Shown here piece by piece: positions 22,998 to 37,592 of a DNA stretch of 64,000 nt. Location of the stretch: assembly GCA_963739135.1 (NCBI GenBank), contig CAVTZG010000026.1:192105-256104 (forward strand), given 5' to 3'. Origin of the DNA: an uncultured Actinomycetes bacterium. Lineage in GTDB: Bacteria > Actinomycetota > Actinomycetes > Streptosporangiales > Streptosporangiaceae. How positions within the stretch are numbered: the first letter of the stretch is position 1; every line of letters begins with the position of its first letter. The position numbers and the translations under genes were made by a program. Under the pieces are notes generated by a model, which had not been told where the DNA came from, did no database searches, and saw only the letters and a program-made list of their open reading frames with translations.

Positions 22998-23019
22998 GGA
23001 CGGAGCTGCAGTGCGGCAG

Positions 23020-23481
23020 ATGGAGGTCATCGGCGTCCGGGTCGAGATGCCGTCGAACAGCCCCATCGTCTTGCTGAAAGAGGCGCAGGGGGATAGGTAC
23101 CTGCCGATCTGGATCGGGGCGGTGGAGGCCACGGCGATCGCCTTCGCCCAGCAGGGGATGGTGTCCGTCCGGCCGCTGACGCACGATCTGTTCAAGGACG
23201 TGCTCGAGGTGCTGAATGTCCAGCTGCGCACGGTGAACATCACCGCGCTGCGGGACGGAATCTTCTACGCCGACCTCGTCTTCTCCAACGGAGCCGAGGT
23301 GAGCGCGCGGCCGTCGGACTCGATCGCACTGGCCCTGCGCACCGGCGCGCAGATCTTCGCCAGCGAGGAGATCCTTGACGAGGCGGGCGTACCCATCCCG
23401 GACGAGCAAGAGGACGAGGTGGAGAAGTTCCGCGAGTTCCTCGATAACATCTCCCCTGAGGATTTCGGCCGGGCCACGTGA
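23020..23481 (+). CDS. bifunctional nuclease family protein (DUF151)
   Basis: MEVIGVRVEMPSNSPIVLLKE...YLPIWIGAVEATAIA...RPLTHDL...FYADL. Confidence 0.85.
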   Translation: MEVIGVRVEMPSNSPIVLLKEAQGDRYLPIWIGAVEATAIAFAQQGMVSVRPLTHDLFKDVLEVLNVQLRTVNITALRDGIFYADLVFSNGAEVSARPSDSIALALRTGAQIFASEEILDEAGVPIPDEQEDEVEKFREFLDNISPEDFGRAT

Positions 23482-23626: not shown

Positions 23627-24286
23627 GTGGAGGTAGGCGTGGCGGTTACCAGGCATGACAGCGGCGGCGGGACGTCCGCCGCTGGCGGCCCACCAGGCTC
23701 GCTGGGCGCTCAGGGCGCCCTCTTCGAGGCTGACGAAGCTCTCGGGCTGTCTGATGAGCCCGGCCCGGGCTCGGCGGAGATCGGCTACCGCGGGCCGACC
23801 GCTTGCTCCGCGGCCGGCATTACCTACCGCCAGCTGGACTACTGGGCGCGGACCGCCCTGGTCGAGCCCAGCGTGCGGGCCGCGCACGGTTCCGGCTCCC
23901 AGCGTCTGTACAGCTTCCGGGATATCCTGGTCCTCAAGGTCGTCAAGCGGCTCCTCGACACCGGGATCTCGCTGCAGCAGATCCGGGCCGCCGTCCAGCA
24001 CCTGCGCGATCACGGCACCGAGGACCTGGCCCAGGTCACCTTGATGAGCGATGGGGTCAGCGTCTACGAATGCACCTCCGCCGATGAGGTGGTAGACCTG
24101 CTCCAGGGCGGCCAGGGAGTGTTCGGCATCGCGCTCGGCCGTGTCTGGCGCGAGGTTGAAGGAGATTTGGCCGTGCTGCCCGCCGTGCGTGCCGAGGACG
24201 GCTTCGTCGCCATGGTCCCCGGATCTGGGGACGGTGCCACGGTCCAGGACGACCTGGCCAGGCGCCGGCTGCGCCGCACCAGCTGA
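23627..24286 (+). CDS. MerR-family transcriptional regulator
   Basis: AAGITYRQLDYWARTALVEPS...GSQRLYSFRDILVLKVVKRLLDTGISLQQIR. The exact start is uncertain. Confidence 0.8.
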   Translation: MEVGVAVTRHDSGGGTSAAGGPPGSLGAQGALFEADEALGLSDEPGPGSAEIGYRGPTACSAAGITYRQLDYWARTALVEPSVRAAHGSGSQRLYSFRDILVLKVVKRLLDTGISLQQIRAAVQHLRDHGTEDLAQVTLMSDGVSVYECTSADEVVDLLQGGQGVFGIALGRVWREVEGDLAVLPAVRAEDGFVAMVPGSGDGATVQDDLARRRLRRTS

Positions 24287-24627
24287 AACGGTTACGAGCC
24301 GCAGGCAAGCGGCGGCCAGCTCCGGTTAACATGGCCGAAAGCGTTAATTCATTACCACGGCCCGCTAATACTCATTTTCGCGTTACGCCCCGGCATCGGG
24401 CCTTTCTGACGAGCAGTCCGGCCCAGGGTGACAATAGTGAGCGGGTCTGTTTAAATGCTCCCATCACCGATTCGGGCGCCGGTCCTGGGCTCGTCCGGCG
24501 GGCCGTGACTGCCGCATGCGCCGCCATCCAACCGGGGCTTGCGTCTGGGGAGGGGGATCAGGTGACCGATTGCTGGGATGCCCACGGCGAGGCGCAGGCG
24601 GCACCGTGCACTGTGGGTCGTTAGCCG

Positions 24628-26550
24628 GTGGACAATATCCATGATTCCCCCGGTTACTGGCTCGGCCTGACGGCCTCGCAGATGGGGGCCGCGCACAAGC
24701 TGTCCGGCCTGCCCAACCAGGATGCTGTGGCGGTACGCCAGGTCGGGCCGGACCTGCTCGTCGCGGCGGTCGCCGACGGCCACGGGCACCACCGTCATTT
24801 CCGCAGCGCCCGGGGTTCGCAGTTCGCGGTGACAGTCGCCTGCCAGGCCGCCGATGAGCTGGCCGTACGGCTGGAAGGTCTCGAGACGGCCGACCAGATC
24901 AGGTCGGAGGTCTTCGGTCAGCTCGTGCCCGCCATCACCGGGCGCTGGCGCGAGGCCGTGCACGACGATCACGCCGCCGAGCCGTTCACCCCTCAGGAAG
25001 AGGCGGCGCGGGCCGCCGACGACGATGTCCTGGTCGCCTACGGATCCACCCTGCTGCTGGCCATCGCCGGACGGGAATGGCTCGTGCTGACCCAGATCGG
25101 CGACGGCGACATCGTGGGCATCCGGCCCGACGGGCGCCCGCTGCTCCCGGTGCCCGGCGACCCGTCGCTGGACGGTCACCAGACCACGAGCCTGTGCACG
25201 ATCCGCGCGGAGGATGAATTCCGGGCCGGCGTGGTGCACATCGCGACCACGGCTCTGCTGGGAGTCCTGCTCGCGACCGACGGGTACGGCAACGCGCAGG
25301 CGGATGACCCGTGGGCCAACTCGGTCAGTGCCGACCTGGCCGAGCTGATCAGCGACCGGCCGCCGGAATGGCTGGCCGCACAGTTGCCGCTGTGGGCGAG
25401 CCGCTGCGCATCGACGGACGGCAGCGCCGACGATACGACCATCGCGTTGCTCATCGCACCCTCGGCGGCGGCCGAACGCCCGGAGGCCCCCACGGTGCCG
25501 GCCGGCCGTGAGCTGAGCCACGAGCCGCCGGCAGCGGCGGCCCGCAGGCTGGCCGACCCGATGGCGAAGCTGTCAGGCGAGGCGCCGACCAGGCGAGAGC
25601 AGCACCTGGAAAAAGCGGCTGTATCTGTGCATGCCGCAGCTCCGGTCATCCCGGCGGGCACCGAATCACCGACCCTGCGCGTCCGGCCCGGATCTCCGCC
25701 CGCCCCGGCCGGAACTCCGGCCGGGGCTGCGGCCGAGACCCCGACCATGACCGTCCGCACCAAGTCTCCAGCCGCACCGGCCCAGCCGCCACGGGCCGCT
25801 GCCCACGGCGCGCCGCCAGTGGCCGCTGCCCACGGCGCGCCGCCACGGGACGCTGCCCCGTCGGCGCCGTCTAGCGGTCATCATGCGACCGCACCGGCCC
25901 GCCGGTCCCGCCGGTCCCGGCGGCCGCTGGTGATCGCTGCGGTGCTCGTGGTGATCGCCGCCGCGGCCGCCATCGCCGTGACCCAGCTGGGTTCTTCGTC
26001 GGCCACGCCGCGGGCCGCTCCGTCCGTCACGGCGCATGCGTCACCGGCGGCCGGCGGGCACCCGTCTGCGACCGCCTCGGCCGGGACGTCGCCGTCCGCC
26101 GGCACGTCTCCGTCCGCCACCGGGCAGGTTTCGTGCAGTGCGCAGTCGTCAGGGACCGGAGTGCCGGTAAGCGGGCCCAGCGCCGAGATATGCGATCCGG
26201 TCACCGGAGTCGAGGTTCCAATCTCCATGACCGGCCTGCCCGGCGACGGAAAGCGCCGCGCGCTGCAGGTCGGCGATTCGATATTCGTGCTGGACGGCGA
26301 CAGGCTATGGTGGCGCGCGGTCGGCGGGCAGGACCCCAGCTGGCACGACCTGGGGTCGGCTCCCACTGGCCCGCAGCAGGACCTGTGCGCCACGCAGCCC
26401 GGTACGGTCATAGCCGCCGCGTCCGACGATGCAGCCGGGGGAGCGAGCACGCCGTGGACCCAGGTCACCGTCCCGGCGCAGTCTCCCGTGCACGTCGGAA
26501 AGGAAACGCGGGTGGCCAGCGATCCGTGCGGGACCGGACCAAATAAATGA
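24628..26550 (+). CDS. transmembrane PP2C-family (PP2C_2-type) protein phosphatase with extracytoplasmic Cys-containing C-terminal domain
   Basis: NQDAVAV...AVADGHGHH...GSTLLLA...IGDGDIV...ATDGYGN, then a Pro/Ala-rich linker, one TM helix (PLVIAAVLVVIAAAAAIAV) and a ~190-aa C-terminal domain. Confidence 0.7.
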   Translation: MDNIHDSPGYWLGLTASQMGAAHKLSGLPNQDAVAVRQVGPDLLVAAVADGHGHHRHFRSARGSQFAVTVACQAADELAVRLEGLETADQIRSEVFGQLVPAITGRWREAVHDDHAAEPFTPQEEAARAADDDVLVAYGSTLLLAIAGREWLVLTQIGDGDIVGIRPDGRPLLPVPGDPSLDGHQTTSLCTIRAEDEFRAGVVHIATTALLGVLLATDGYGNAQADDPWANSVSADLAELISDRPPEWLAAQLPLWASRCASTDGSADDTTIALLIAPSAAAERPEAPTVPAGRELSHEPPAAAARRLADPMAKLSGEAPTRREQHLEKAAVSVHAAAPVIPAGTESPTLRVRPGSPPAPAGTPAGAAAETPTMTVRTKSPAAPAQPPRAAAHGAPPVAAAHGAPPRDAAPSAPSSGHHATAPARRSRRSRRPLVIAAVLVVIAAAAAIAVTQLGSSSATPRAAPSVTAHASPAAGGHPSATASAGTSPSAGTSPSATGQVSCSAQSSGTGVPVSGPSAEICDPVTGVEVPISMTGLPGDGKRRALQVGDSIFVLDGDRLWWRAVGGQDPSWHDLGSAPTGPQQDLCATQPGTVIAAASDDAAGGASTPWTQVTVPAQSPVHVGKETRVASDPCGTGPNK

Positions 26551-26754
26551 CCGGTGCCGGCGAATGCGGTCCCACCAGCCCATTCAGGCATTCCCGATTT
26601 TGCCGCCTGAGTCCGCCCTATTTTACCGTCGCTATACCTTTCCGTACCGGGCTCATGGCACTACGATCTGGATTGTCACCGTGCCCTGCTGCTGGTGGCA
26701 GGCGAGTGCAGTGGTGACCATTCCGGGCTTGGGGAGAGCGTTGGGGGGCGAGTG

Positions 26755-28338
26755 ATGATGGCAGCAGATAGTGCTGCGGATCAGGCGGCCGCGACGATTG
26801 GCGGCCGGAAGCAGGCCCGGCCCGCGGCTGGCGGCACCGGTGACCTGACCGAGGAACTGATCGCCACCGACTCATGGACAGACGCCATGGTCGCGGCGGC
26901 CGGGATTCCCATCGTCGACGTGCCGCTGGTAACGCTGGGCGGCGGCATGGGCAGCTTCGTCACCGTGGATTACCTGCGGATCGCCGGGGTGGCCACCGAC
27001 CGGATCCGGGTGCTATCGGACATCGACTATCCGTGGCAGACCTACGAGTACCTGACCCGGGTTTCGCAGATTCCGCGCCCCGAACGGATCCGCTCCGACT
27101 CGGCCTCCAGGCCGGACAATATCTGGGGATTCCCCTCCTACGCGCTGGCCGAAGCGATCCACGACCGCACCCTGAAGCCGCTGCGCCAAGTGCTCGTCGA
27201 GCCGATCTGGGCTGATTACTACACTCCGCGAGCGGGCCAGGTCTTCACCGGCCTGGAACGTGAGGCCAAGCGCATCAGATTTTCGGACATGCTGGTCAAG
27301 GGGCAGGTCCGGATGGTGCGCCGCCGCAAGGGCGGCGGCTACTTCACGATCCTGACCCCGCCGGACGCCAAGCCGGCCCGTCGCGTGGCCTACCGGTCGC
27401 AGTTCGTGCACGTCGCGGTCGGGTATCCGGGCCTGAAGTTCCTGCCTGAGCTGCAGGCTTTCCGGACCGAGAACCAGGACTTCTACCACGTGGTCAGCGC
27501 GTACGAAGATCACGAGCATATCTACGACCGGCTCCGCGCGAAGCAGGGGGTAGTGCTGGTCCGAGGCGGCGGCATTGTCGCCTCGCGGGTCCTGCAGCGC
27601 CTGATGGACGACCGGGCCAAGTACAACTTGTCGACCGAGATCGTGCACTTGTTCCGCACCTACGTATCGGGTTCCCACGGCCCCGGCCCGTGGATGCGGC
27701 GCAAGGGCGGCAACGGGTGGGCCTACCAGGGGTTCAACTACCCGAAGTCGGTCTGGGGCGGACAGCTCAAGGCCAAGATGCGCCGCCTGGAGGGAGACCA
27801 GCGGGCCACCGAGTACAAGCTGATGGGCGGGACCAACACGCCGTACCGGCGGCGCTGGCAGCAGCAGATGAACGAGGGCCGGGCCGGCGGTTGGTACCGC
27901 GTGCTGGCCGGCACCGTCGAGCAGATGAAGGTCCGCGAGGACGGGATGGTCATCAGCCAGGTCAAGACCTCGCAGGGCGTAGTCGAGGTCGCGGCCGACT
28001 TCGTCATCGACTGCACCGGCCTGGAAGCCGACGTCTCCGAGCACCGAGTGCTGGCCGACCTGCTCGAGCATTCCGGCGCCGGGCGCAACCCGGTCGGCCG
28101 CCTGGATGTCGAGCGCACCTTCGAACTGCGCGGCACGAGCAGCGGGACGGGAGTCATCTACGCCTCGGGAGCCGCCACCCTGGGCGGCTACTTCCCCGGC
28201 GTGGACACGTTCCTGGGCCTGCAGATAGCCGCGCAGGAAATCACCGACGACCTGGCCCGGCGGGGATTCTGCCCGAAAATCGGCCCGGGCCGTTCCGTTT
28301 CTCAATGGCTGCGCTGGGCCAGGAACCAGCAGCCGTAA
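26755..28338 (+). CDS. uncharacterised FAD/NAD(P)-binding (two-Rossmann) oxidoreductase-like protein
   Basis: First dinucleotide motif VTLGGGMGSF and second LVRGGGIVASRV. VAVGYPG and DFVIDCTGLEAD sit where N-hydroxylating/FMO-type flavoproteins have their conserved segments. GGGGGCGAG RBS-like run before ATG 26755. Confidence 0.5.
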   Translation: MMAADSAADQAAATIGGRKQARPAAGGTGDLTEELIATDSWTDAMVAAAGIPIVDVPLVTLGGGMGSFVTVDYLRIAGVATDRIRVLSDIDYPWQTYEYLTRVSQIPRPERIRSDSASRPDNIWGFPSYALAEAIHDRTLKPLRQVLVEPIWADYYTPRAGQVFTGLEREAKRIRFSDMLVKGQVRMVRRRKGGGYFTILTPPDAKPARRVAYRSQFVHVAVGYPGLKFLPELQAFRTENQDFYHVVSAYEDHEHIYDRLRAKQGVVLVRGGGIVASRVLQRLMDDRAKYNLSTEIVHLFRTYVSGSHGPGPWMRRKGGNGWAYQGFNYPKSVWGGQLKAKMRRLEGDQRATEYKLMGGTNTPYRRRWQQQMNEGRAGGWYRVLAGTVEQMKVREDGMVISQVKTSQGVVEVAADFVIDCTGLEADVSEHRVLADLLEHSGAGRNPVGRLDVERTFELRGTSSGTGVIYASGAATLGGYFPGVDTFLGLQIAAQEITDDLARRGFCPKIGPGRSVSQWLRWARNQQP

Positions 28339-28384
28339 TTCGCTTACCCAAGATGCCCACGCTCCGATAGGGACAGGTGCTGGC

Positions 28385-28822
28385 ATGGTTCCCACCTTGA
28401 GCGGCCGGATACAGACCAGGATCTTCCTGATGGCTGTCGTCGGCGGCCTCATCACGCTCGTGATCGTCCCGGTCTTGCCGGGCAGCGCGCCGCTCGGCGA
28501 TAAGTACCGGGACGGCTTCCTGGTCCTCCTGAGCGTCGCCGTGCTGGGCGTGCTCTGGGAGGTTCTCTACCATTTCCTGATGCAATGGCGCTGGGAGAAG
28601 GACTGGCCGACGCTGTTCGGGCTGGCTACCGGGATACCGGAGGGTCTGCTGGTCTGGCTGCTGCTCAGCGTCGGCGCCGTGCCGGGGATCGTGGGGCACG
28701 TCGGCGGGGCCGCGTTCGGAATCCAGTTCATCCTGGTCTGGCTGGGGGTCTGGCTCGTGGCCAACGGGCCGATGCGGGTGCCCTTCATCCGGTGGCGGTT
28801 CGTGGGCGGGAGGGTCTGGTGA
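28385..28822 (+). CDS. small 4-TM membrane protein, function unknown
   Basis: 145 aa with hydrophobic helices (IFLMAVVGGLITLVIVPVL, FLVLLSVAVLGVLWEVLY and others). The stop overlaps the next gene's start (GTGA). Confidence 0.55.
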   Translation: MVPTLSGRIQTRIFLMAVVGGLITLVIVPVLPGSAPLGDKYRDGFLVLLSVAVLGVLWEVLYHFLMQWRWEKDWPTLFGLATGIPEGLLVWLLLSVGAVPGIVGHVGGAAFGIQFILVWLGVWLVANGPMRVPFIRWRFVGGRVW

Positions 28823-30258
28823 CTGAGCAAGGAATCGGTGTCCTGCCCGGCCTGTGGCCGATCCACGGGGACGGGGTGCTGGCCAGGCAGGGAGGCCTGG
28901 TCCTGCTGATCCATCCCGCGGGAGGCGCCTTCACCGACCGGCTGCTTGACCTGCTGACTGACGCGGCCCGGGCCTGCGAGACCGGCCTGCGCTTCGCCGG
29001 CCTGATCGCCGCGGAGTTCGACGCCGACGCCGCCGCGGAGTTCGACGCCGCCGCCGCGACCGGCCAGCCCGGCCCGGCCGCGGTGGCCTTCGGCCCCGTC
29101 GGCGACGGCACGGCCATCGCCATCTACGGCACCGCCTGGGCCGAGATCACGACGGCCCACGGCACGCAGCAGCTGACCGCGGGCCAGCCCTATGGCCGGC
29201 TGCAGTGCGTCCTGCCGTCCCGGGTAATGAAGGTCCGGGCCGGCGTGCAGGCCGCGGACGGCGACGCCAGCACCGATCCCTACCTGCGCCTGGCTGACGG
29301 GATGGTCCGGGCCGTGGCCCTGGTTTACGCTCCCGAAGAAACCCCGCGAAGGACCGCTGACCGGGGCAGGCGCGCGCTGCTGCCCGAGCGCACCGTCATG
29401 GACGCGGCCTGGGGCGGGCAGGCCGCTGCCCCCAGCCACCAGCTTGACCAGGCTAAGGAGGCGGCGCCGGTTCCCGCCGAGCCGTCCGTGCACCAGCAGG
29501 GGGCAGGCCAGGCCGAACAGCCGGCCTACCAGCCAGACGCCGGCCATGCCGCTTACCAGCCCGCCGCCGGCCAGGACGGTCAGCCCGCCTACCAGCCAGA
29601 GGCGGGCCGCGCCGAGCACGTGGTCGGGGACCCCTTCGAAGCCGACAGCCTGGCCGGCCGGTCGTTCATCTCCATACCGCTTATCGGCGACCAGGCCGCC
29701 AGCGAGATACCCCAGCGGGACCCGCTGCCGCTGGGCGCCGAACCTCCGGACGACCGCGAGCTCGGAACCGCGGACCAGCACCCCCAGGTCGTCGTGGGCG
29801 TCTACTGCAAGAACGGGCACTTCGACGACCCCGAGGCGCGCTACTGCGCCGTGTGCGGCATCGGCATGGCCCAGCTGACCAAGGTGCCCCAGGACGGGCC
29901 GCGGCCGCCGCTCGGCGTGCTGGTCCTGCAGGACGGTTCGGTATGCCAGCTCGACGCCGACTACGTGCTGGGCCGGGAGCCGACCCTGGAAAGCTCGGTG
30001 GCCGACGGCAGCGCCCGGCCGCTCCGGCTCGGCACCGCCTCGGGCCTGGTGTCCCGGATCCACGCCCGCGTCGAGCTCGACGGCTGGCAGGTGTTCATCT
30101 CCGACCTGAATTCCGCGAACGGCACCCAGGTCCTCCTGCCGGGAGACACCAGCGGCAGGACACTGGAGCCCGGCATCCGCACTCCTCTCGTGGCCGGGGC
30201 CCAGATCCGACTGGGCGGCGACTACGGACTCAGATATGACTCGCACCGTCACCGGTAA
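28819..30258 (+). CDS. FHA-domain protein with internal zinc ribbon and Gln/Pro/Ala repeat linker
   Basis: GTG 28819 in the frame of ORF 28585..30258. VYCKNGHFDDPEARYCAVCG, then the FHA core YVLGREP...VSRIHARVEL...DLNSANGTQV. PAYQP repeats lie upstream. Confidence 0.75.
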   Translation: MTEQGIGVLPGLWPIHGDGVLARQGGLVLLIHPAGGAFTDRLLDLLTDAARACETGLRFAGLIAAEFDADAAAEFDAAAATGQPGPAAVAFGPVGDGTAIAIYGTAWAEITTAHGTQQLTAGQPYGRLQCVLPSRVMKVRAGVQAADGDASTDPYLRLADGMVRAVALVYAPEETPRRTADRGRRALLPERTVMDAAWGGQAAAPSHQLDQAKEAAPVPAEPSVHQQGAGQAEQPAYQPDAGHAAYQPAAGQDGQPAYQPEAGRAEHVVGDPFEADSLAGRSFISIPLIGDQAASEIPQRDPLPLGAEPPDDRELGTADQHPQVVVGVYCKNGHFDDPEARYCAVCGIGMAQLTKVPQDGPRPPLGVLVLQDGSVCQLDADYVLGREPTLESSVADGSARPLRLGTASGLVSRIHARVELDGWQVFISDLNSANGTQVLLPGDTSGRTLEPGIRTPLVAGAQIRLGGDYGLRYDSHRHR

Positions 30259-30285
30259 GTGACGCGGCGGAGCTGGGGGCTAACC

Positions 30286-32295
30286 ATGAGCCTTAACGAT
30301 GTCCAGCTGCTCCTGGCGGACGTGGCCATCATCATCATCCTGGCCAGGCTGCTCGGCAGCATAGCGCGCCGCCTCGGGCAGCCGCCGGTGCTGGGCGAGA
30401 TCCTGGTCGGGATCCTGCTGGGGCCGACGTTCTTCCACGCCCGCATCACCAACGCGCTGTTCCCGCCGTCACTGATCCCCCCGCTGACCGCGCTGGCCGA
30501 CATCGGGCTCGTGCTGTTCATGTTCGTCGTCGGGTACGAGGTGGACCTGCGCCTGATCCGGGGCCGGGAGCGGGTCGCGGTGGCCGTCTCCACCGGGTCG
30601 GTCATCCTCCCGCTGGCCCTGGGCTCGCTGCTCGGGGTGTGGCTGGCCCACCGCAACCACGTGCCGCACGTGTCCACGTTCGCGCTGTTCATCGGCACCG
30701 CCATGGCGGCCACCGCGTTCCCCGTACTGGCCCGCATCCTGACCGACCGGGGCCTGCACCGCACCCGCATCGGCGGGATCGCGCTGGCCAGTGCCGCGAT
30801 AGCCGACGTGCTGGCCTGGATCTTGCTGGCGGTGGTGGTCGCGCTGGCCGGGAGTACCCAGCAATGGAAGGTGCTGCTCGCCATCCCCTATGCCGCCGCG
30901 ATGTTCGTAGTCGTCAGGCCGCTGCTGCGCAGGCTGGGCCAGAGCTACCTGAAGGCGGGCCGGCTCACCCCGAACGTCCTGGCCACCGTGCTGGCCGCGC
31001 TGCTGCTGTCCTGCTACGCCACCAACTGGATGGGCCTGCATTTCATCTTCGGCGCGTTCCTGTTCGGCATCATCATGCCCCGCGAGCCGGTCATGGCCAT
31101 GCGGGAGGAGATCCTCGAGCGCCTGGAACAGCTCAGCGTCGTGGTGCTGCTCCCGCTGTACTTCGTGGTGTCGGGCCTGAGCATCAACCTGTCCACCATC
31201 GGGCGGTCCGGTCTCGAGGAGCTCGGCGCCATCCTGGTCGTCGCCATCGGCGGGAAGCTGGTCGGCGCCTACCTGGGTGCCCAGCTCACCGGGGTCCGCG
31301 GCCGCAACGCCGGCGTGCTCGCCACGCTGATGAACACCCGGGGCCTGACCGAGCTGGTCATCCTGAGCGTCGGGCTCCAGCTGCACATCCTGACCAAGCC
31401 GCTGTACACCCTTATGGTGGTCATGGCGCTAGTCACGACCGCGATGAGCGGCCCGCTGCTGAGGTGGATCTACCCCGACAAGATCATGCAGCGCGACCGG
31501 GCCGCCGCGGACCGGGCGGCGATTGCGGGCGGATCGGCGCACCGGGTCGTGGTGCTCGTCGACCAGCCGGAGACGGCCGGGCCCCTGGTCGACGTGGGCG
31601 CCGACCTGGCTGCCACGCGGCCGGGCAGCGAGCTGGTGCTGGCCCACCTGGTCTCGATCCGGCCCGCCGGCCGCCTGGAGGTGGGCACCGGCCTGGGCGG
31701 TGAGCTGATGCAGATGACCGTGGTCATGCGCCAGCTGAACGACCTGGCCGAGCGGGCCGCGGCCCGCGGCGCCCGGGCCGTAGTGCTCTCGCGCATGAGC
31801 GACGACGTACCAGGTGAGCTGCCGTCCTTCATCGCGGCCGCCGAACCCGACACGCTCGTCCTGCGCGCCGGCGACGGGATACGCGAGGCCGCCGGGGCCA
31901 ACGACGCGATCCGCATGGTCACCGCCGGCGCCGCCCTGCCCGAGGCGCCGAGCGCCGTGGCCGTCTATTGCGGGCACGGCGGCGGCGCCACCGCCGCGCT
32001 GGATGTCGCCGCCCAGGTGGCCGCGGCCAGGCAGCTGGAGCTCATCCTGGCCGGGGACGAGGGCAGGCGGGTCCGCAACGCGGCCGCGGAACTGGCCCAG
32101 CAGGGCATCCCCGCCAGCAGCGGCCCGCCTCCGGAGGGCGCTTTGGTCATCGCGAGCGAGGACGGCGCCGCCACCGGTGCCGCCACTGGCGCCGCCGTGC
32201 ACCTGACCGTCCGGGCAGGCAGTGGCGAGGACATCGAGGAGCGTCACAGAATCGGTACCCCGGTCTCCGCTCTGGAGCCAGGAAGGCGGCAATGA
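30286..32295 (+). CDS. CPA2-family cation:proton antiporter with C-terminal cytoplasmic (Usp-like) region
   Basis: LGQPPVLGEILVGILLGP, about 12 TM helices, NTRGLTELVIL, and a ~260-aa soluble tail. Confidence 0.85.
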   Translation: MSLNDVQLLLADVAIIIILARLLGSIARRLGQPPVLGEILVGILLGPTFFHARITNALFPPSLIPPLTALADIGLVLFMFVVGYEVDLRLIRGRERVAVAVSTGSVILPLALGSLLGVWLAHRNHVPHVSTFALFIGTAMAATAFPVLARILTDRGLHRTRIGGIALASAAIADVLAWILLAVVVALAGSTQQWKVLLAIPYAAAMFVVVRPLLRRLGQSYLKAGRLTPNVLATVLAALLLSCYATNWMGLHFIFGAFLFGIIMPREPVMAMREEILERLEQLSVVVLLPLYFVVSGLSINLSTIGRSGLEELGAILVVAIGGKLVGAYLGAQLTGVRGRNAGVLATLMNTRGLTELVILSVGLQLHILTKPLYTLMVVMALVTTAMSGPLLRWIYPDKIMQRDRAAADRAAIAGGSAHRVVVLVDQPETAGPLVDVGADLAATRPGSELVLAHLVSIRPAGRLEVGTGLGGELMQMTVVMRQLNDLAERAAARGARAVVLSRMSDDVPGELPSFIAAAEPDTLVLRAGDGIREAAGANDAIRMVTAGAALPEAPSAVAVYCGHGGGATAALDVAAQVAAARQLELILAGDEGRRVRNAAAELAQQGIPASSGPPPEGALVIASEDGAATGAATGAAVHLTVRAGSGEDIEERHRIGTPVSALEPGRRQ

Positions 32296-33122
32296 TCATG
32301 ACTGGTGAACATGACGGCATCGCCGACTATCAGTTCATCCGGAAGCTCGGCGCCGGGGGCCACGGGGTGTTCTACCTCGCCCGCCGGCCGGAACGGCTGC
32401 CCATCACCGCCAACTACGTCGCGGTCAAGGTGCTCTCCGGCGGCAGCAGCCAGGATCTGTTCAGGTGGGCGCACCGCGAGCTCGCTGCGTTCGCCGCGGT
32501 CAGCTCGCCCTACCTGGTCAGCCTGTACGACGCGGGCCAGCAGGGCGAGGAGGTGTACTACTCGATGGAGTACCTGCCCGGCGGCTCGCTGGCCGAGCCG
32601 GCCGAGCCGCTCAGCCGGGCCGCCGCCTTGAAGGCCATGGCCGACGTCTCCCGCGCCGCGCACGCCCTGCACGAGGCCGGCATCGCCCACCGTGACATCA
32701 AGCCGGGCAACGTCCTGCTGCAGCCCGGCGGGGCCAAGCTGGCCGACCTCGGCCTCAGCCACGTGCTCTCACCCGGGATCACCGTCACCGGCATGGGCCC
32801 CGCGGGCGATATCGGCTACCTCGACCCGTGCCTGATGCGCGGCGATCGCCCGTCCCGGGCCAGCGACGTGTTCTCGCTGGGCGCTACCTTGCACTTCGCC
32901 CTGGTAGGCGAGGGCCTGTGGGGGCAGCTCCCGCAGGATGATCCGGTCATGGCCATGCGCACGGTCGTGTCCCATCCGCCCGCCATCTCTGCCCAGGTGG
33001 ACCCGGCGGCCCGGGATATCATCGCCTGGGCCATCGCCGCCGACCCGGCCGAACGGCCCGGCACCGCCCTGGAGCTCGCCGAGCGAATCGAGGAGCTCGC
33101 TATGGCCTCCGCCCCCGATTAG
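32292..33122 (+). CDS. stand-alone Ser/Thr protein kinase catalytic domain (276 aa)
   Basis: GAGGHGVFY, VAVKVL, HRDIKPGNVLL and ADLG. The ATG overlaps the antiporter stop (ATGA). Confidence 0.85.
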   Translation: MIMTGEHDGIADYQFIRKLGAGGHGVFYLARRPERLPITANYVAVKVLSGGSSQDLFRWAHRELAAFAAVSSPYLVSLYDAGQQGEEVYYSMEYLPGGSLAEPAEPLSRAAALKAMADVSRAAHALHEAGIAHRDIKPGNVLLQPGGAKLADLGLSHVLSPGITVTGMGPAGDIGYLDPCLMRGDRPSRASDVFSLGATLHFALVGEGLWGQLPQDDPVMAMRTVVSHPPAISAQVDPAARDIIAWAIAADPAERPGTALELAERIEELAMASAPD

Positions 33123-33133
33123 CGCATATAAAG

Positions 33134-33172
33134 TTGGGGGGTCCGGGGGGGACGACCCCCCGGGAAAAGAAT
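33134..33172 (-). repeat. G-run/C-run dispersed repeat, partial copy (intergenic)
   Basis: ggggggtccgggggggacgaccccccgggaaaaga. Its reverse complement matches cttttcccggggggac...ccccccggacccccc of copy 1. Confidence 0.65.
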
Positions 33173-33213
33173 GCCTGGCCGGTAGCGGCAGCCGGCCAGG
33201 GACGGAGACGTGG

Positions 33214-34521
33214 ATGACATCGGCGACGAGGAGCGAGCCTGACGGGCCGCGCTTTGGGCCTTACATCCTGACGGCCGTCATCGGCCGCGGCGGGATGGGC
33301 GTCGTCTACCGCGCCTACAACACCGTCAAGGCGCGCACCGTCGCCCTCAAGGTGCTGACCCCCGAACTGGCCGCGGATCCGGTGTACCGGGAACGCTTCC
33401 GCCGCGAGTCCCGGCGCGCGGCCCGGCTCAGCGAGCCGCACATCATCCCCATCCACGACTACGGGCAGATTGACGGCCGCCTGTTCATCGACATGCGCCT
33501 GGTGCAGGGCACCGACCTGTCCACCATGCTGGAGCGCGACGGGCCGCTGCCGCCGAACGGGGCGGCCTGGGTCATTGCCCAGGTCGCCTCGGCACTGGAC
33601 GCCGCGCATGCCGACGGGCTGGTGCACCGGGACGTCAAGCCGTCCAACGTGCTGATCACCGGGCATATCCAGAGCATGCCGTTCGCCTATCTGATCGACT
33701 TCGGCATCGCCCGCGCGGTCGGCAGCGTCACCGTCTCCACCGCCACCAGCGCCGTCGGCACCCTGGCCTACATGGCGCCGGAACGGATCAACGGGGCGCC
33801 CGGCGACCACCGGTCGGACGTGTACTCGCTGGCCTGCGTGCTGTACGAGTGCCTGACCGGGCACGAGCCGTTCACCGGGGAGATGGTGGCCGTCATGTGG
33901 GCCCAGATCAACTCCCCGCCGCCCGCGCCCACCGCGGTCAGGCCCGGCCTGCCCGCCACGGTCGACCAGGTCATCGCGCGCGGCATGGCCAAGGACCCGG
34001 CCAGCCGGTATAGCACCGCGGGCGAGCTGGCCGCCGCCATGCTGGCCGCGGTCGATCCCAGCGTACGGCAGGCCCGGGAGCCGGAACCCGGCCCGCCGAC
34101 CGCGGTCACCTACGTCCCGGCCAAGGGGGACCGGCCCGCACCGCACCAGACGGGCGCCGACGTCCCGCTGTGGGAAGGTGACCCGGCCGGCCGGACCCAG
34201 GCCGCGCTGCGCGCCATCGTGGCCAACCCCCAGCTGGGGGTGGCCGCCCTGTCCAGCTCGCAGGCCATGTCCGCCGCGCTGAAGGACCTGCTTCCCGGTC
34301 GGCCCCGGGAGACGAAGGTGCTGGTGGCCGCGGCCGAGGTGGGGCTGACCGCGGCCCTGAAGTATCACACGGCGCGCGGCATGGACGTGACTACCGCCCG
34401 CCGGCGGGCGGCGCGGTCCTTCGCCAAGCACACCGGGTTCGCGCCGGAAGCATGCAGCTGGGCGGTCGACCACCTGACCGCGGCGCTCGGCCTGGACGCC
34501 GGCTCCGAGGTAGCCCGGTAG
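33214..34521 (+). CDS. Ser/Thr protein kinase with ~150-aa C-terminal domain of unknown function
   Basis: [31 protein letters not shown] and GTLAYMAPE. No TM helix was seen. Confidence 0.9.
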
Positions 34522-34584
34522 AACCGGGGCGTCGGGTCCCACAATCTGGTCCCGCTCGGGTAAGATCTCAATTGCTGATGACAC

Positions 34585-34745
34585 CGGCCGGGAGAGATCC
34601 CGCATTGCTGCGGGCGCCGAAGGGGCAACATCCCCGGAACCTCTCAGGCACACGAACCAGCCGGAACAGGCATCTCTGGAGCGGGCCCAGCAGGCCAAAG
34701 GGGCCGCGACAGACGGGGAGCCAGCGACCGCGCTCGTCCGGGAGG
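34585..34745 (+). ncRNA. glycine riboswitch (one canonical aptamer plus a degenerate second element) in the gcvP leader
   Basis: ccGGGAGAGatcccgcattgctgcgggCGCCGAAGGGGCAAcatccccggaaccTCTCAGGCAcacgaac matches the glycine aptamer core. It is followed by CTCTGGAGCgggcccagcaggCCAAAGGGGCcgcgac, which lacks the CTCAGG element. It lies directly upstream of gcvP. Confidence 0.75.
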
Positions 34746-34751
34746 CTCTCT

Positions 34752-37592
34752 ATGACAGACTTCGCTGCTCGTCACATCGGGCCGTCCGAAGCCGCGCAGC
34801 GGCAGATGCTCGGCAGCCTCGGCTACGCATCACTCGACGAGCTCATCCGCGCCGCCCTGCCAGAAGCAATGGGGCCCGCAGGGACCGAGGCGGCGCAGCT
34901 GAGCCTGCCCGCCCCGCTGTCCGAGCCGCAGGCACTCGCCGAGCTGCGCCGGATGGCCGGCCGGAACCAGGTGCTGACCTCGATGATCGGCCTGGGCTAT
35001 TACGACACGGTCACCCCGGCCGTCATCCGCCGCAACGTGCTGGAGAACCCGGCCTGGTACACGGCGTACACCCCGTACCAGCCGGAGATCTCGCAGGGCC
35101 GGCTCGAGGCGCTGCTGAACTTCCAGACCATGGTCGCCGACCTGACCGCGCTGCCGTGGGCCGGCGCCTCACTCCTCGACGAGGCTACCGCCGCGGCCGA
35201 GGCCATGACGCTGGCCCGGCGCGCCGCCAGGAAGGGACACGTCTTCCTGGCCGACGCCGACTGCCTGCCGCAGACGCTCGCCGTGCTGCGCACCAGGGCC
35301 GAGCCGCTCGGCATCCACCTCGTCGTCGAACCGGTGACGGCCGAGGCCATCGCCGCTCAGCCCGACCTGTTCGGCGTGCTGCTGCAGTTCCCCGGCGCGT
35401 CGGGCGCGGTCACCGACCCGGCCCCGCTGATCGAGGCGGCGCACGCGCGGGGTGCGCTGGCCGCGGTGGCCGCCGACCTGCTGGCCCTGACCCTGCTGCG
35501 GCCGCCGGGCGAAATGGGCGCCGACATCGCGGTGGGCTCGACCCAGCGGTTCGGCGTGCCGCTGTGGTTCGGCGGCCCGCACGCGGGCTACATGGCGGTC
35601 AGCGACCCGCTCAAGCGCCAGCTGCCCGGCCGGCTCGTCGGGGTCTCGGTAGACGCCGACGGGCGGCCCGCCTACCGCCTGGCCCTGCAGGCCCGTGAGC
35701 AGCACATCCGCCGGGAAAAGGCGACGAGCAACATCTGCACCGCGCAGGTGCTGCTCGCGGTGACCGCCGCCATGTACGCGGCCTACCACGGGCCCGACGG
35801 GCTGGCTGCCATCGCACGGGCCACTCACCGTAGCGCCGCTGTCCTGGCCGCCACCCTGCACGATTTTGGGCACCGAACGGGCCGTGGTGACTTCTTCGAC
35901 ACGATCCGGATCGTGTTCGGTGGCGGACGGGACGAGGCGGCCAGGGCGCTGGACCGGGCCCGGGAGGCGGGGTACAACCTGTACCTGGCGCCGGACGGCG
36001 CGCTGCAGGTCAGCTGCGACGAGACCACCGCCGACGACCAGCTGCGGGAGGTCGTGGCCGCCATCTGCCAGGTGGAACGCCCGGCCGACGTGCAGCTGTC
36101 GGATGCTTCGCCCGACGTGCTGCCCGCTGCGCTGCGGCGCACGTCGGCATTCCTCACCCATCCGGTGTTCAGCGCCCACCGGAGCGAGACCGCGATGCTG
36201 CGCTACCTGCGGCGGCTGGCCGATTTCGACATCGCCCTCGACCGGTCGATGATCCCGCTCGGCTCGTGCACGATGAAGCTGAACGCGGCGGCCGAGATGG
36301 AGCCGATCAGCTGGCCGGGGTTCGCCGGCCTGCACCCGTTCGCCCCGCCGCCGCAGGCGGGCGGCTACGAGGAGCTGATCGAATCGCTCGAGGTCCGGCT
36401 GGCCCGGCTCACCGGGTACGACGCGGTATCCGTGCAGCCGAACGCCGGCTCGCAGGGCGAACTGGCGGGCCTGCTGGCCATCCGGGCCTACCACGCGTCC
36501 CGCGGCGAGGACGACCGCGACGTCTGCCTGATCCCGGAGTCGGCGCACGGCACCAACGCGGCCAGCGCGGTGCTGGCCGGGCTGCGCGTGGCGGTGGTCA
36601 AGTGCGGCTCTGACGGCGCCATCGACCTGGGCGACCTGGAGGCCAAGCTGGAGGCCCACCGGGGGCGGGTGGCCGCCATCATGCTGACCTATCCGTCCAC
36701 GGCCGGCGTCTACGAGCAGAACGTGAGCGCCGCCTGCGAGTCGGTGCACGCGGCGGGCGGCCAGGTGTACATCGACGGCGCGAACCTGAACGCGCTGGTC
36801 GGGGTGGCTACCCTGCCGTCGTTCGGCGCGGACGTGTCGCACCTGAACCTGCACAAGACGTTCTGCATCCCGCACGGCGGCGGCGGTCCCGGCGTGGGGC
36901 CGGTGGCCGTCCGCGCGCACCTGGCCGACTTCCTGCCCGGGCGCGGGGTGACCGGCCCGGTGGCGGCCGCACCCTACGGGTCCGCGGGCATCCTGCCCAT
37001 CTCGTGGGCCTACATCGCGATGATGGGCGCGGACGGGCTGCGCCGGGCCACGAGCGTCGCCGTGCTCTCGGCCAACTACGTGGCCAGGCGGCTGGCGCCG
37101 CACTACCCGGTGCTGTACACCGGGCGGAACGGGCTGGTCGCGCACGAGTGCGTCATCGACCTGCGCCCGCTCACCCAGGAGACCGGGATCACCGTGGACG
37201 ACGTGGCCAAGCGGCTGGTCGACTACGGGTTCCACGCGCCCACCATGTCGTTCCCCGTGGCCGGCACGCTGATGATCGAGCCGACCGAGAGCGAGAGCCT
37301 GGATGAGCTCGACCGGTTCTGCGACGCGATGATCTCGATCAGGTCGGAGATCGCCCGGGTGACCTCCGGCGAGTACGACGCCCACGACAACCCGCTGAAG
37401 AACGCCCCGCACACCGCCGAGATGCTCATCTTGGGGGAGTGGAAGCACCCTTACGACCAGCAGGCGGCGGCCTACCCGCCCGGCGTGGACCGCCGCGCCA
37501 AGTACTGGCCGCCCGTGCGCCGCATCGATCAGGCCTACGGCGACAGGAACCTCGTCTGCTCCTGCCCGCCCCCCGAAGCGTTCGAGAGCTGA
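34752..37592 (+). CDS. gcvP: glycine dehydrogenase (aminomethyl-transferring), P-protein
   Basis: [41 protein letters not shown] and [16 protein letters not shown] (PLP lysine region). 946 aa. Confidence 0.95.

Follow-up and report, generated by a model that had tools for sequence, protein, structure and literature searches.

Between a MerR-family regulator gene and gcvP, the window (the whole 64,000-nucleotide stretch analysed here) carries seven genes that raise two questions: do they form a functional unit, and what might such a unit do? The original prediction described them as a phospho-threonine signalling island at positions 24290-34540, with a flavoprotein and a CPA2 antiporter as cargo. 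This description was borne out by gene calling guided by GC3 and by Pfam, which placed all seven genes on the + strand with the named domains present (Table 1).

A segment inserted into a conserved host block

A metagenome scan anchored on the 156-aa protein of the host block turned up the uninterrupted state in close relatives, at 14 loci in which this protein is 91-96% identical. In each of them MerR2 is joined to gcvP across a gap of ~190-500 bp. When five uninterrupted loci (L095, L096, L099, L106 and L149) were compared with the window by blastn, homology broke off at 24284-24290 and resumed at 34525-34537, in good agreement with the predicted borders and with an insertion. The left edge is the MerR2 stop codon. 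No shared k-mer of at least 11, integrase or tRNA-like signal was found at the junctions. The host block is otherwise contiguous, as had been proposed: FHA1, its first gene, keeps its position in the uninterrupted relatives and is followed by MerR1, the 156-aa protein (86-99% identical across related loci), MerR2, the glycine riboswitch and gcvP. Within the insertion, the common direction of the seven genes and the overlaps of TM4 with FHA2 (GTGA) and of the CPA2 stop with the KIN1 start (ATGA) were taken as signs of an operon; a promoter/terminator search gave no consensus in support of one.

Table 1. Features of the inserted segment and its flanks (window positions)
Feature	Position	Strand	Evidence
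FHA1 (flank), Zn-ribbon + FHA protein	21547..22131	+	Pfam FHA E 2e-20, Zn_Ribbon_1 E 9e-9
MerR1 (flank), MerR-family regulator	22128..22997	+	Pfam MerR_1 E 2e-11
156-aa protein (flank); DUF151 is a label of the original prediction only	23011..23481	+	NCBIfam: no match
MerR2 (flank), MerR-family regulator	23627..24286	+	Pfam MerR_1 E 1.5e-13
Inserted segment as a whole, ~10.2 kb	24291..34524	+	blastn vs uninterrupted loci
PP2C_2 membrane phosphatase (accessory)	24628..26550	+	Pfam PF13672 E 2e-28
FLAV (core), two-dinucleotide-binding-domain flavoprotein, 527 aa	26755..28338	+	AF2 model, Foldseek, motifs
TM4 (core), four-helix membrane protein, 145 aa	28385..28822	+	Adjoins FLAV; own HMM
FHA2 (core), FHA protein	28819..30258	+	PF00498 E 5e-7
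CPA2 (core), CPA2-type cation/proton antiporter + Usp-like domain	30259..32295	+	Na_H_Exchanger E 6e-52, Usp E 5e-5
KIN1 (core), soluble kinase-domain-only Ser/Thr kinase, 276 aa	32292..33122	+	Pkinase E 1.5e-32
KIN2 (accessory), soluble Ser/Thr kinase, 435 aa	33214..34521	+	Pkinase E 3e-44
Glycine riboswitch (flank), single aptamer, before gcvP	34579..34669	+	RF00504, 61.5 bits, E 8e-11
gcvP (flank), glycine dehydrogenase	34752..37592	+	TIGR00461, 1311 bits vs cut-off 859

A five-gene core with lineage-specific additions

That the seven genes might not be co-conserved elsewhere had been named beforehand as the finding that would count against a unit. Five of the seven clearly are. Fifty-eight actinobacterial genome loci extended 6 kb or more to each side of FLAV. 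Its neighbours included TM4 and FHA2 in all 58, and CPA2 and KIN1 in 57 each. Loci came from Streptosporangiaceae, Thermomonospora, Actinocorallia, four genera of Micromonosporaceae, Nocardioides, Cryptosporangium, Jatrophihabitans, Pseudonocardiales and Frankiales. Across them KIN1 was 49-95% identical, and the CPA2 gene may lie on either strand. The core occurred in at least four gene orders: with KIN1 before CPA2, with CPA2 on the opposite strand, with KIN1 divergent upstream, and with CPA2 and KIN1 shifted 4-6 kb upstream. An association kept through such rearrangements is more than inherited gene order.

The other two genes behaved differently, and the proposed seven-gene unit is reduced accordingly. 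A PP2C_2-type gene lay within 10 kb of FLAV in only 15 of 80 genome loci (the best-scoring 80 of 479 hits, a choice that leans towards close relatives). A KIN2-like kinase was present in 13/58 loci; in Jatrophihabitans and Pseudonocardiales, kinases 57-63% identical to KIN2 are encoded divergently upstream of FLAV. The core is FLAV-TM4-FHA2-CPA2-KIN1, which several orders of actinobacteria share and which recurs in part in other phyla; PP2C and KIN2 are lineage-specific additions, and the MerR/gcvP site is likewise lineage-specific, one among many locations of the module.

The FLAV-TM4 pair

No model in Pfam or NCBIfam reached its threshold with FLAV, whose more than 2194 homologues are all without a name. 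Its AF2 model (pLDDT 91.5, pTM 0.90) was searched with Foldseek, and the top 50 matches were all N-hydroxylases, including PvdA, SidA, KtzI, DesB and NbtG (best E 5e-19; TM 0.60 query-normalised and 0.75 target-normalised), a likeness that is structural only, with 11-16% identity and an RMSD of ~5 Å. In a 50-sequence alignment, the glycines of GxGxxG and GxGxxA and the D-x-T-G motif were (near-)invariant; mean column identity of the family was 27%, and the nucleotide-binding glycines were nonetheless invariant. A marginal profile match to KtzI (E 0.05) covered the NADPH motif and the ATG-like motif. Both glycine motifs, for FAD and for NAD(P)H, are retained in FLAV, and its predicted structure has a class-B N-hydroxylating flavin monooxygenase fold. 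Given its large family-specific insertions, the chemistry could differ, or FLAV could be a binding-only protein. Between Streptosporangiaceae and Jatrophihabitans FLAV is 74-88% identical, and no homologue was found in 2.9 million viral contigs or on true plasmids; this high conservation and absence were taken as a housekeeping character. GDLTxxL in the FLAV tail was rejected as a candidate phosphosite, as Asn replaces its Thr in 12 of 72 orthologues.

TM4 has no relative in Pfam or PDB and no NCBIfam model above threshold. It carries the invariant motifs GRxQTR, RW[DE]xDWP and WR..GG. It adjoins FLAV in 79 of the best-scoring 80 loci, and a TM4 HMM found it beside FLAV in all eight distant contexts tested (E 1e-26 to 1e-62); the adjacency held wherever the downstream gene was readable, distant non-actinobacterial contigs included. 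FLAV and TM4 are an obligate gene pair in Actinomycetota and other phyla. The pair also stands alone, with FHA, kinase and antiporter genes absent nearby, in L089, L090, L091 and Nonomuraea L172, which indicates that phospho-control and ion coupling are not universal. This pair is the most informative component of the segment, one beyond the resolution of the original prediction.

Signalling proteins and antiporter

FHA2 shows the residues of a pThr-binding FHA domain (GR, SxxH and NG), and no relative was found for its N-terminal domain. It had been called a zinc-ribbon FHA protein; the FHA part stands, while the zinc ribbon is not recognized by Pfam and corresponds to a conserved C-x3-H-x8-C-x2-C motif, plausibly a putative zinc ribbon. 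KIN1 conserves the VAVK Lys, HRD, Asn and D-L-G, and the C-terminal region of KIN2 is without assignment. The phosphatase has a cytoplasmic catalytic domain with metal-binding Asp positions that are invariant in the alignment, one strong TM helix (residues 434-452) and a C-terminal Cys-containing outer domain. Judged by these conserved functional residues, the kinases, FHA and PP2C are predicted to be active signalling parts. The antiporter reading frame probably begins in fact with the ATG at 30286. The protein has its Usp-like domain at the C-terminus, scored 153 bits against TIGR00932 (under the cut-off), and showed no RCK/KTN domain in Pfam or NCBIfam searches.

Gene fusions and recurrence in other phyla

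Additional evidence came from domain fusions. In distant members FLAV is joined to other domains: of 42 representatives with an N-terminal extension, 31 bear FHA domains and one a kinase domain. In a single case, in Actinoallomurus (L088), TM4 was fused to a Zn-ribbon + FHA-like tail. In Rubricoccus marinus the order was PP2C_2, FHA, 2xFHA::FLAV, TM4 (39% identity, E 6e-30), Na_H_Exchanger and then a kinase. Locus L174 contained PP2C, kinase, FHA, 2xFHA::FLAV, TM4, PP2C and kinase, and L082 contained kinase::FLAV, TM4, a TauE transporter, a small kinase and FHA. In such loci the association takes the form of fused genes, namely FHA::FLAV, kinase::FLAV or TM4::Zn-ribbon/FHA-like.

Comparison with known systems

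No characterised counterpart of the module was found in the literature, NCBIfam or PADLOC, consistent with the original prediction, which had also drawn a parallel with the mycobacterial PstP/FhaA/FhaB/PknA/PknB locus. This parallel holds as an analogy of parts (a membrane PP2C that has an outer domain, FHA proteins whose linker is long and disordered, and a pair of Hanks-type kinases, all in one co-directional cluster) and of control logic, a membrane machine under Thr phosphorylation and FHA docking. It does not extend to orthology: none of the module proteins is an orthologue, with NCBIfam scores of 17.5 bits for FhaB (cut-off 125) and of 122 and 296 bits for the two kinases against PknB_PASTA (cut-off 450). 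PASTA domains are missing from the module kinases, which are soluble, the phosphatase is of the PP2C_2 type, and the cargo is FLAV-TM4 and an antiporter, whereas that of the division-wall locus is RodA/PbpA.

With the class-B N-hydroxylating monooxygenases (PvdA, SidA, KtzI, DesB, NbtG and DfoA; PF13434) FLAV shares the two-Rossmann fold and, at equivalent positions, FAD GxGxxG, NADPH GxGxxA and an ATG-like D-C-T-G-L. It differs in large conserved insertions, such as RIRSDSASRPDNIWGFPSYA and YQGFNYPKSVWGGQLK, in the absence of siderophore genes among the neighbours surveyed, and in its obligate 4-TM partner and FHA/kinase fusions, which to our knowledge do not occur in siderophore N-hydroxylases.

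KefF sets a precedent for a flavoprotein that partners a CPA2 exchanger. The KefC/KefF and KefB/KefG systems resemble the module in that the genes of a CPA2-family exchanger and of an NAD(P)H-dependent flavoprotein are neighbours, as well as in the concept of redox/nucleotide gating of cation/proton exchange. However, the flavoproteins KefF and KefG are small quinone reductases with a flavodoxin fold whereas FLAV is a monooxygenase-fold protein, the module antiporter has a Usp-like tail instead of a visible RCK/KTN domain and scored 60 bits against the NCBIfam KefB equivalog (cut-off 804), and we know of no kinase or FHA layer in Kef systems. Another relevant example is Rv1747, a PknF-regulated FHA-domain ABC transporter that is bound by the Usp protein Rv2623 (PMC5549992). 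As would hold for the module, membrane transport there is tied to FHA-phosphothreonine recognition and a Usp-fold partner (PMC5549992), but the transporter is of the ABC type, carries the FHA domains itself, and has neither a flavoenzyme nor a 4-TM partner.

Alternative explanations

We consider the segment, with a probability of roughly 0.6, to be a conserved chromosomally encoded signalling-plus-effector module, in which a Thr-phosphorylation circuit would act on an NAD(P)H/FAD enzyme at the membrane, with cation/proton exchange coupled to it. A different and rather unlikely arrangement would make the antiporter the real output, with FLAV-TM4 as its NAD(P)H/redox-sensing ancillary subunit, like KefF/KefG or RCK/KTN domains, and with kinase and FHA providing a second gate via the Usp tail. 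The KefF precedent, the Usp-like domain in place of RCK/KTN, the documented binding of Rv2623 to an FHA domain of the transporter Rv1747 (PMC5549992) and the presence of CPA2 in all but one of the 58 loci from actinobacteria, and in Rubricoccus too, all fit it. It has difficulty with L081, L089-L091 and L172-L174, in which no Na_H_Exchanger gene lies near FLAV-TM4, and with L082, whose in-line transporter is of the TauE family; moreover, the fold of FLAV is that of a monooxygenase, and its conservation is far above that of CPA2 (74-88% against 44-79% identity). Improbable, in our view, is a conflict system in which a kinase/FHA/PP2C sensor arm fires a membrane- or NADPH-depleting FLAV-TM4 effector upon phage or competitor attack. 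Such triads are frequent in predicted conflict systems (PMC7159879), as is illustrated by the Esr pathway (PMC13622651), a vWA-FHA protein adjoins the module in L174, and the location of the module differs within one family. Both kinases also matched PADLOC kinase models, but these matches reflect the kinase domain in general, and none of the other five proteins matched anything there. FLAV evolves very slowly with no sign of diversification, its homologues are absent from viral contigs and true plasmids, and the insertion borders have no integrase genes or repeats.

The structural matches, all ornithine, lysine or diamine N-hydroxylases, and the marginal KtzI match would also suit an ordinary siderophore-type amine N-hydroxylase (PvdA/IucD/DesB-like) whose neighbours are unrelated or serve export only. 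This we regard as quite improbable: FLAV itself missed the Pfam Lys_Orn_oxgnase threshold (best E in the family 0.054, in 3 of 50 members), the partner and fusions noted above are unfamiliar in such enzymes, and no NRPS, NIS synthetase, acyltransferase or siderophore-uptake gene was seen in neighbour clusters common to at least 10 of the best-scoring 80 loci, clusters mostly without their own Pfam scan, or among annotated neighbours in 11 distant contexts. A chance or purely historical juxtaposition of functionally unlinked genes is very improbable. It accords with the restriction of PP2C, KIN2 and the MerR/gcvP site to one clade and with the lack of an operon consensus, but for the five-gene core it is contradicted by co-conservation in several orders despite rearrangements, by fusions tying FLAV to FHA/kinase domains and TM4 to an FHA-like tail, and by the recurrence of the parts list in Rubricoccus marinus, outside Actinomycetota; it remains only for PP2C and KIN2.

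Proposed function

In the signalling-plus-effector module that we favour, KIN1 would phosphorylate Thr on a module component, possibly assisted by KIN2 in the host lineage. The target could lie in the FHA2 linker, in the Usp tail of CPA2 or in TM4, where the N-terminal GRxQTR has an invariant Thr. The membrane PP2C would reset the phosphorylation, and its outer domain could take an extracytoplasmic cue. The FHA domain of FHA2 would bind the phospho-threonine, and this binding may assemble or switch a membrane-docked FLAV-TM4 enzyme and the antiporter. At the membrane, FLAV-TM4 would then spend NAD(P)H and O2 in oxidising, probably N-hydroxylating, a small molecule or lipid head group that bears an amine, while the exchanger would adjust K+/Na+ and H+ in parallel. 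In the host lineage this module, together with the added PP2C and KIN2 genes, was placed between MerR2 and the gcvP glycine riboswitch.

Seven genes inserted between MerR2 and gcvP

Genes were called by third-position GC content and ORF structure (the window has ~71% G+C). The original prediction had placed seven genes of one strand at 24290-34540, and seven co-directional genes were indeed called there (see table), with a GTGA overlap joining TM4 to FHA2 and an ATGA overlap joining CPA2 to KIN1. The flanks were likewise as described: genes for a zinc-ribbon FHA protein, MerR1, a 156-aa protein and MerR2 precede the segment, and a glycine riboswitch and gcvP (identified by TIGR00461) follow it. 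A single aptamer was detected in the riboswitch, even with a relaxed E-value.

Features of the window in and around the inserted segment
Feature	Position	Strand	Observations
First host-block gene	21547-22131		Zinc ribbon (Zn_Ribbon_1, E 9e-9) precedes FHA domain
156-aa protein	23011-23481		Conserved; named DUF151 in the original prediction; NCBIfam scan empty
Left junction	24287-24627		341 bp, non-coding, locally A+T-richer (e.g. GGTTAACATGGCCGAAAGCGTTAATTCATTACC)
Inserted segment	~24291-34524		From blastn break points
97-aa ORF	24331-24624		Overlaps left junction; no clear third-position GC signal
PP2C	24628-26550	+	PF13672, E 2e-28; one strong TM helix (residues 434-452), followed by a Cys-containing C-terminal domain
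FLAV	26755-28338	+	No Pfam family; Trp_halogenase match sub-threshold only
TM4	28385-28822	+	Four hydrophobic helices; no family
FHA2	28819-30258	+	C-terminal FHA (PF00498), E 5e-7; conserved C-x3-H-x8-C-x2-C motif before FHA
CPA2	30259-32295	+	Na_H_Exchanger, E 6e-52; Usp, E 5e-5
KIN1	32292-33122	+	276 aa; kinase domain only (Pkinase, E 1.5e-32)
KIN2	33214-34521	+	435 aa; Pkinase, E 3e-44
TCCCACAATCTGGTCC...GGGTAAGAT	~34535-34565		Just 5' of riboswitch; common to window and uninterrupted relatives
Glycine riboswitch	34579-34669		RF00504; precedes gcvP

We scanned metagenome contigs with the 156-aa protein and then ran the window proteins against them by tblastn. In 14 loci of close relatives, in which the 156-aa protein was 91-96% and gcvP 70-89% identical to those of the window, MerR2 and gcvP are separated by a gap of roughly 190-500 bp. 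When five uninterrupted loci were compared with the window by blastn, homology was lost at 24284-24290 and regained at 34525-34537, and these break points, which define the inserted segment, lie only 4-48 bp apart in the five reference loci. On the left the segment starts just past the stop codon of MerR2, and on the right it reaches to just short of the conserved stretch that precedes the riboswitch. Presence or absence of the segment among close relatives is therefore real, and the predicted insertion into a conserved block is borne out. A PP2C gene follows MerR2 in five metagenome loci, and FLAV comes next in three of these, wherever the contig was long enough.

The features expected of a mobile genomic island (an integrase or transposase, repeats or a tRNA site, atypical composition) were not found. 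No k-mer of 11 or more nucleotides was shared between the insertion ends and there was no target-site duplication or att repeat; no integrase was present at the borders, no mobility domain was detected in the seven proteins, and GC content was 0.67-0.75 inside versus ~0.69-0.73 outside, with no compositional shift. In three loci with closely related FLAV proteins (L004, L006 and L016, 81-87% identity), neither the MerR genes nor gcvP occurred within 10 kb of the module, suggesting relocation within the lineage or local gain. The event thus looks like one of these rather than a classic mobile island, and offers a clean, dated example of a module moved into a regulated metabolic locus, directly upstream of a glycine riboswitch.

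Several features of the borders were also observed. The stretch shared with uninterrupted relatives just 5' of the riboswitch may be the gcvP promoter. The left junction is probably the PP2C promoter region and not a gene; an Rfam scan of it gave no match, and scans for sigma-70 promoters and intrinsic terminators, which are uninformative for high-GC DNA, found none. The layout of FHA2, with a putative metal motif followed by an FHA domain, resembles that of the first host-block gene. To our knowledge, M. tuberculosis GarA (Rv1827), with which the latter had been compared, has no zinc ribbon.

Conservation of a five-gene core in Actinomycetota

A one-genome-per-species scan identified FLAV relatives in 479 stretches, and we took the 80 best-scoring loci with 10 kb flanks, a selection biased towards close relatives. 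Occurrence of the other genes was counted by tblastn with the window proteins in the 58 loci that had at least 6 kb on either side of FLAV. TM4 and FHA2 were matched in all 58, and CPA2 and KIN1 in 57 each; PP2C was matched in 14, KIN2 in 13, and gcvP and MerR2 in 13 each. An HMM search detected a PP2C_2-like gene near FLAV in 15/80 loci. The predicted co-conservation of seven genes thus applies to FLAV, TM4, FHA2, CPA2 and KIN1, which form the core, and fails for PP2C and KIN2, which, together with the genomic site, are clade-specific additions.

Gene order within these loci was variable. KIN1 precedes CPA2 in the Micromonosporaceae genera Actinoplanes, Dactylosporangium and Longispora; CPA2 is on the opposite strand in Streptosporangium, one Cryptosporangium locus and a Frankiales MAG; KIN1 is divergent and upstream of FLAV in Nocardioides; and both CPA2 and KIN1 are located 4-6 kb upstream in two Cryptosporangium loci. 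An association kept through rearrangement across several orders is a standard signature of a functional link.

Additional genes were observed in some loci. In sister loci of the window's clade (L005:8247-9728, also L009, L010, L013 and L015), a gene absent from the window lies between PP2C and FLAV and encodes an FHA domain (E 4e-10) fused to a PrsW-family intramembrane protease (E 2e-13), which puts a further membrane protein of this island under FHA control. In 24/80 loci (e.g. L018:8410-9699), the gene directly upstream of FLAV encodes a DUF3048 protein, with E 2e-27 for the N-terminal and 4e-17 for the C-terminal domain.

FLAV-TM4 pairs and domain fusions outside the core loci

More than 2194 FLAV homologues were detected, none of them named, and 561 clusters were recovered when 1.84 billion representatives were searched exhaustively with HMMER. 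N-terminal extensions were frequent in members of ~40% identity: of 42 extended representatives, 31 had an FHA domain in one or two copies and one had a kinase domain, examples being proteins from Microseira wollei (Cyanobacteria) and Rubricoccus marinus. A cluster with an unfused representative (63% identity) included a member from an Acidimicrobiia MAG. NCBI labels these proteins 'FHA domain-containing protein', 'FAD/NAD(P)-binding protein' or hypothetical.

We examined a sample of 11 distinct distant contexts. One example involved Rubricoccus marinus (L087), in which genes for PP2C_2, an FHA protein, FLAV fused to two FHA domains, a TM4 homologue (39% identity, E 6e-30) and a Na_H_Exchanger protein are accompanied by a kinase gene on the opposite strand. 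In L174, a similar double-FHA fusion and TM4 are preceded by vWA-FHA, PP2C, kinase and FHA genes and followed by PP2C and kinase genes, and two further contigs (L173 and L081) have a small FHA protein, an FHA-FLAV fusion and TM4. Another example is a kinase-FLAV fusion of 841 aa (L082:8001-14230), which is followed by TM4, a TauE/SafE-family transporter at the usual place of CPA2, a small kinase (266 aa), an FHA protein and a further kinase; the transporter slot thus seems exchangeable. The TM4 HMM matched all eight downstream small proteins tested (E 1e-26 to 1e-62), one of them from a contig with 31% G+C.

FLAV and TM4 also occurred alone, in L089-L091 and in Nonomuraea gerenzanensis (L172, NZ_LT559118.1), in which the two proteins were 60% and 57% identical to those of the window and FHA, kinase and CPA2 genes were absent within 9 kb. 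The single match in a search of plasmids (PLSDB) was an 11.85 Mb record of the latter species, designated 'plasmid I' and evidently a chromosome; this record has only 10 annotated features, none under the FLAV match. No FLAV relatives were found in the viral contigs searched. A hierarchy emerges from these contexts: FLAV is followed by TM4 wherever the downstream gene is readable, linkage to FHA and kinase genes is frequent and extends across phyla, and a transporter, usually CPA2, is common in Actinomycetota.

Two individual cases were recorded in addition. Actinoallomurus rhizosphaericola (L088:9542-10783) has a paralogous pair, with FLAV 43% identical, in which TM4 is fused to a zinc-ribbon and FHA-like tail (a C-x-H-x-H...C-x-x-C motif and FHA2-like sequence). 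On one distant contig (L173:14468-16909), an 813-aa Spermine_synth-domain protein is encoded ~4 kb from the FHA-FLAV fusion and TM4; this neighbor, a single case, is of interest since structural relatives of FLAV act on diamines.

Predicted properties of the encoded proteins

FLAV was modeled with AF2 from a 50-sequence alignment that included representatives of 27-60% identity (pLDDT 91.5, pTM 0.90); an earlier model from 15 sequences of 74-87% identity (pLDDT 56) was discarded. In a Foldseek search of the PDB, the 50 best matches were all N-hydroxylating class-B flavin monooxygenases, including PvdA, SidA, KtzI, DesB, NbtG, lysine 6-monooxygenase, putrescine N-hydroxylase and DfoA (E 5e-19 to 7e-15; TM 0.47-0.61 query-normalized and 0.59-0.75 target-normalized; best match, E 5e-19, TM 0.60 and 0.75), and the protein is predicted to have the three-domain FAD/NADPH fold of PvdA and SidA. 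Identity to the N-hydroxylases was 11-16%. In the 50-sequence alignment, whose mean column identity is 27%, neither the FAD motif (GGGxGS) nor the NAD(P)H motif (GGGIVA) varied in its glycines, and a D-C-T-G-L motif was invariant or nearly so. KtzI aligned with FLAV at the NAD(P)H and D-C-T-G-L sites (profile-versus-PDB E 0.05); the latter reads D-F-V-I-D-C-T-G-L in full, a partial match to D(x)3[LF]ATGY.

FLAV is similar to the N-hydroxylases in its predicted fold but falls outside them by sequence. The window protein had no match to Pfam Lys_Orn_oxgnase (PF13434), for which 3 of 50 family members gave weak matches (best E 0.054); and sequence searches against PDB, Pfam, NCBIfam and PADLOC found nothing above threshold. 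It also has long, nearly invariant segments of its own. From its model and motifs, we take FLAV to be a genuine enzyme that uses NAD(P)H and FAD and is a distant relative of the N-hydroxylases. Its tail motif GDLTxxL was considered as an FHA-binding phosphosite and rejected: the Thr is replaced by Asn in 12/72 orthologs, and the motif lies at a helix N-cap.

TM4 has invariant GRxQTR (N-terminus), RW[DE]xDWP (after helix 2) and WR..GG (C-terminus) motifs and no relatives in Pfam or PDB. A conserved heme-ligand His was sought in TM4, but the candidate was dropped, as the residue varies (Asn in L087 and L090, Ile in L174). FHA2 retains the phosphothreonine-binding residues (LGRE, SRIHA, NSANGT) in conserved columns (GR, SxxH, NG), and by these residues its pocket is canonical. 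Pfam and PDB profile searches with its N-terminal domain (~170 aa) were empty. EsrG carries a 'pseudophosphatase' (PMC13622651), and on this model a degenerate PP2C was considered for that domain and rejected (hhalign probability 0.4%).

KIN1 and its orthologs have conserved catalytic residues (VAVK, HRDIKPGN, D-L-G), and the PP2C metal ligands D32, D50, D159, D218 and D268 were invariant (alignment A4). The kinase, FHA residues and phosphatase aspartates of a generic Hanks-type module are thus all present, with PP2C as an accessory. The PF00999 match of CPA2 spans profile positions 5-372 of 375, with at least 10 hydrophobic segments. Its scores lay below the cut-offs of TIGR00932 (153 vs 238 bits) and KefB (60 vs 804), none of the RCK/KTN models matched and Usp was the match at the C-terminal domain. 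It is a CPA2 antiporter outside the Kef type.

Relation to known systems and possible function

The original prediction had drawn a parallel to the PstP/FhaA/FhaB/PknA/PknB locus. The control logic of Ser/Thr kinase, FHA and PP2C is common to both, but NCBIfam equivalog scores identified no ortholog (FhaB, 17.5 vs cut-off 125; PknB_PASTA, 122 and 296 vs 450), the window kinases have no TM helix or PASTA domain and the segment has no RodA/PbpA gene. No description of a system of this composition was found in the open-access literature, as had been anticipated, and the Aravind paper on conflict systems mentions no monooxygenase, FAD or antiporter. We class the system as a putative case of phosphothreonine control over a membrane machine, with two uncharacterized protein families at its center.

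At the level of genes and fusions, a predicted flavoenzyme and its membrane partner show a conserved association with a writer, a reader and sometimes an eraser of threonine phosphorylation, to which a CPA2-Usp exchanger is attached in Actinomycetota. FLAV-TM4 may be an unrecognized multi-phylum membrane-anchored flavin monooxygenase, phospho-switched via FHA and coupled in Actinomycetota to the CPA2-Usp exchanger, a tentative reading to which we give a probability of about 0.4. In the most likely mechanism, KIN1 would phosphorylate a module component, and the FHA domain, a separate protein here and fused to FLAV or TM4 elsewhere, would dock on that phosphothreonine, thereby assembling or switching FLAV-TM4 at the membrane together with the neighboring exchanger; PP2C would remove the mark. 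In the window's clade, an extracytoplasmic input may enter through the outer domain of PP2C, with KIN2 perhaps providing another. The chemistry, which we presume to be the oxidation of a membrane-sited amine with NAD(P)H and O2, is the weakest step of this mechanism. A precedent for control of a transporter by FHA and Usp domains is Rv1747 with Rv2623 (PMC5549992).

In the main rival explanation, FLAV-TM4 would serve the exchanger as a redox-sensing subunit in the manner of KefF. FLAV-TM4 pairs that have no exchanger weaken this view, as does the TauE transporter that replaces CPA2 in L082. A siderophore function, which the structural matches to PvdA and SidA might recall, is disfavored: no siderophore synthetase or uptake genes occurred among the recurring neighbor clusters or in the annotated distant contexts. 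Searches of PADLOC-DB v2 found no family for PP2C, FLAV, TM4, FHA2 or CPA2 and only generic kinase-domain matches for KIN1 and KIN2, and FLAV was absent from the viral contigs and true plasmids searched; a defense system is disfavored as well. So is chance juxtaposition, given the retention of the five core genes.

Hanks-type kinases are numerous in Actinomycetota, and for few of them has an output been defined. In the present case the wiring can be read from the genome itself: a specific effector pair has beside it a kinase of its own, a reader and in some cases an eraser, a link independently confirmed by the domain fusions in other phyla. Neither family of this pair has a Pfam or NCBIfam model above threshold. 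FLAV is among the most conserved unnamed proteins of these genomes, with 74-88% identity between Streptosporangiaceae and Jatrophihabitans, a constraint that points to redox chemistry of importance at the membrane. Since there are cultured carriers (including Actinoplanes, Longispora, Thermomonospora, Nocardioides, Streptosporangium and Rubricoccus marinus), these predictions are open to direct testing. If the tentative reading of FLAV-TM4 as a phospho-switched monooxygenase is true, the pair would give Hanks-kinase signaling in bacteria a new kind of output. The product of the enzyme could be an N-oxidized amine of the membrane or envelope that serves the homeostasis of ions, pH or the envelope.
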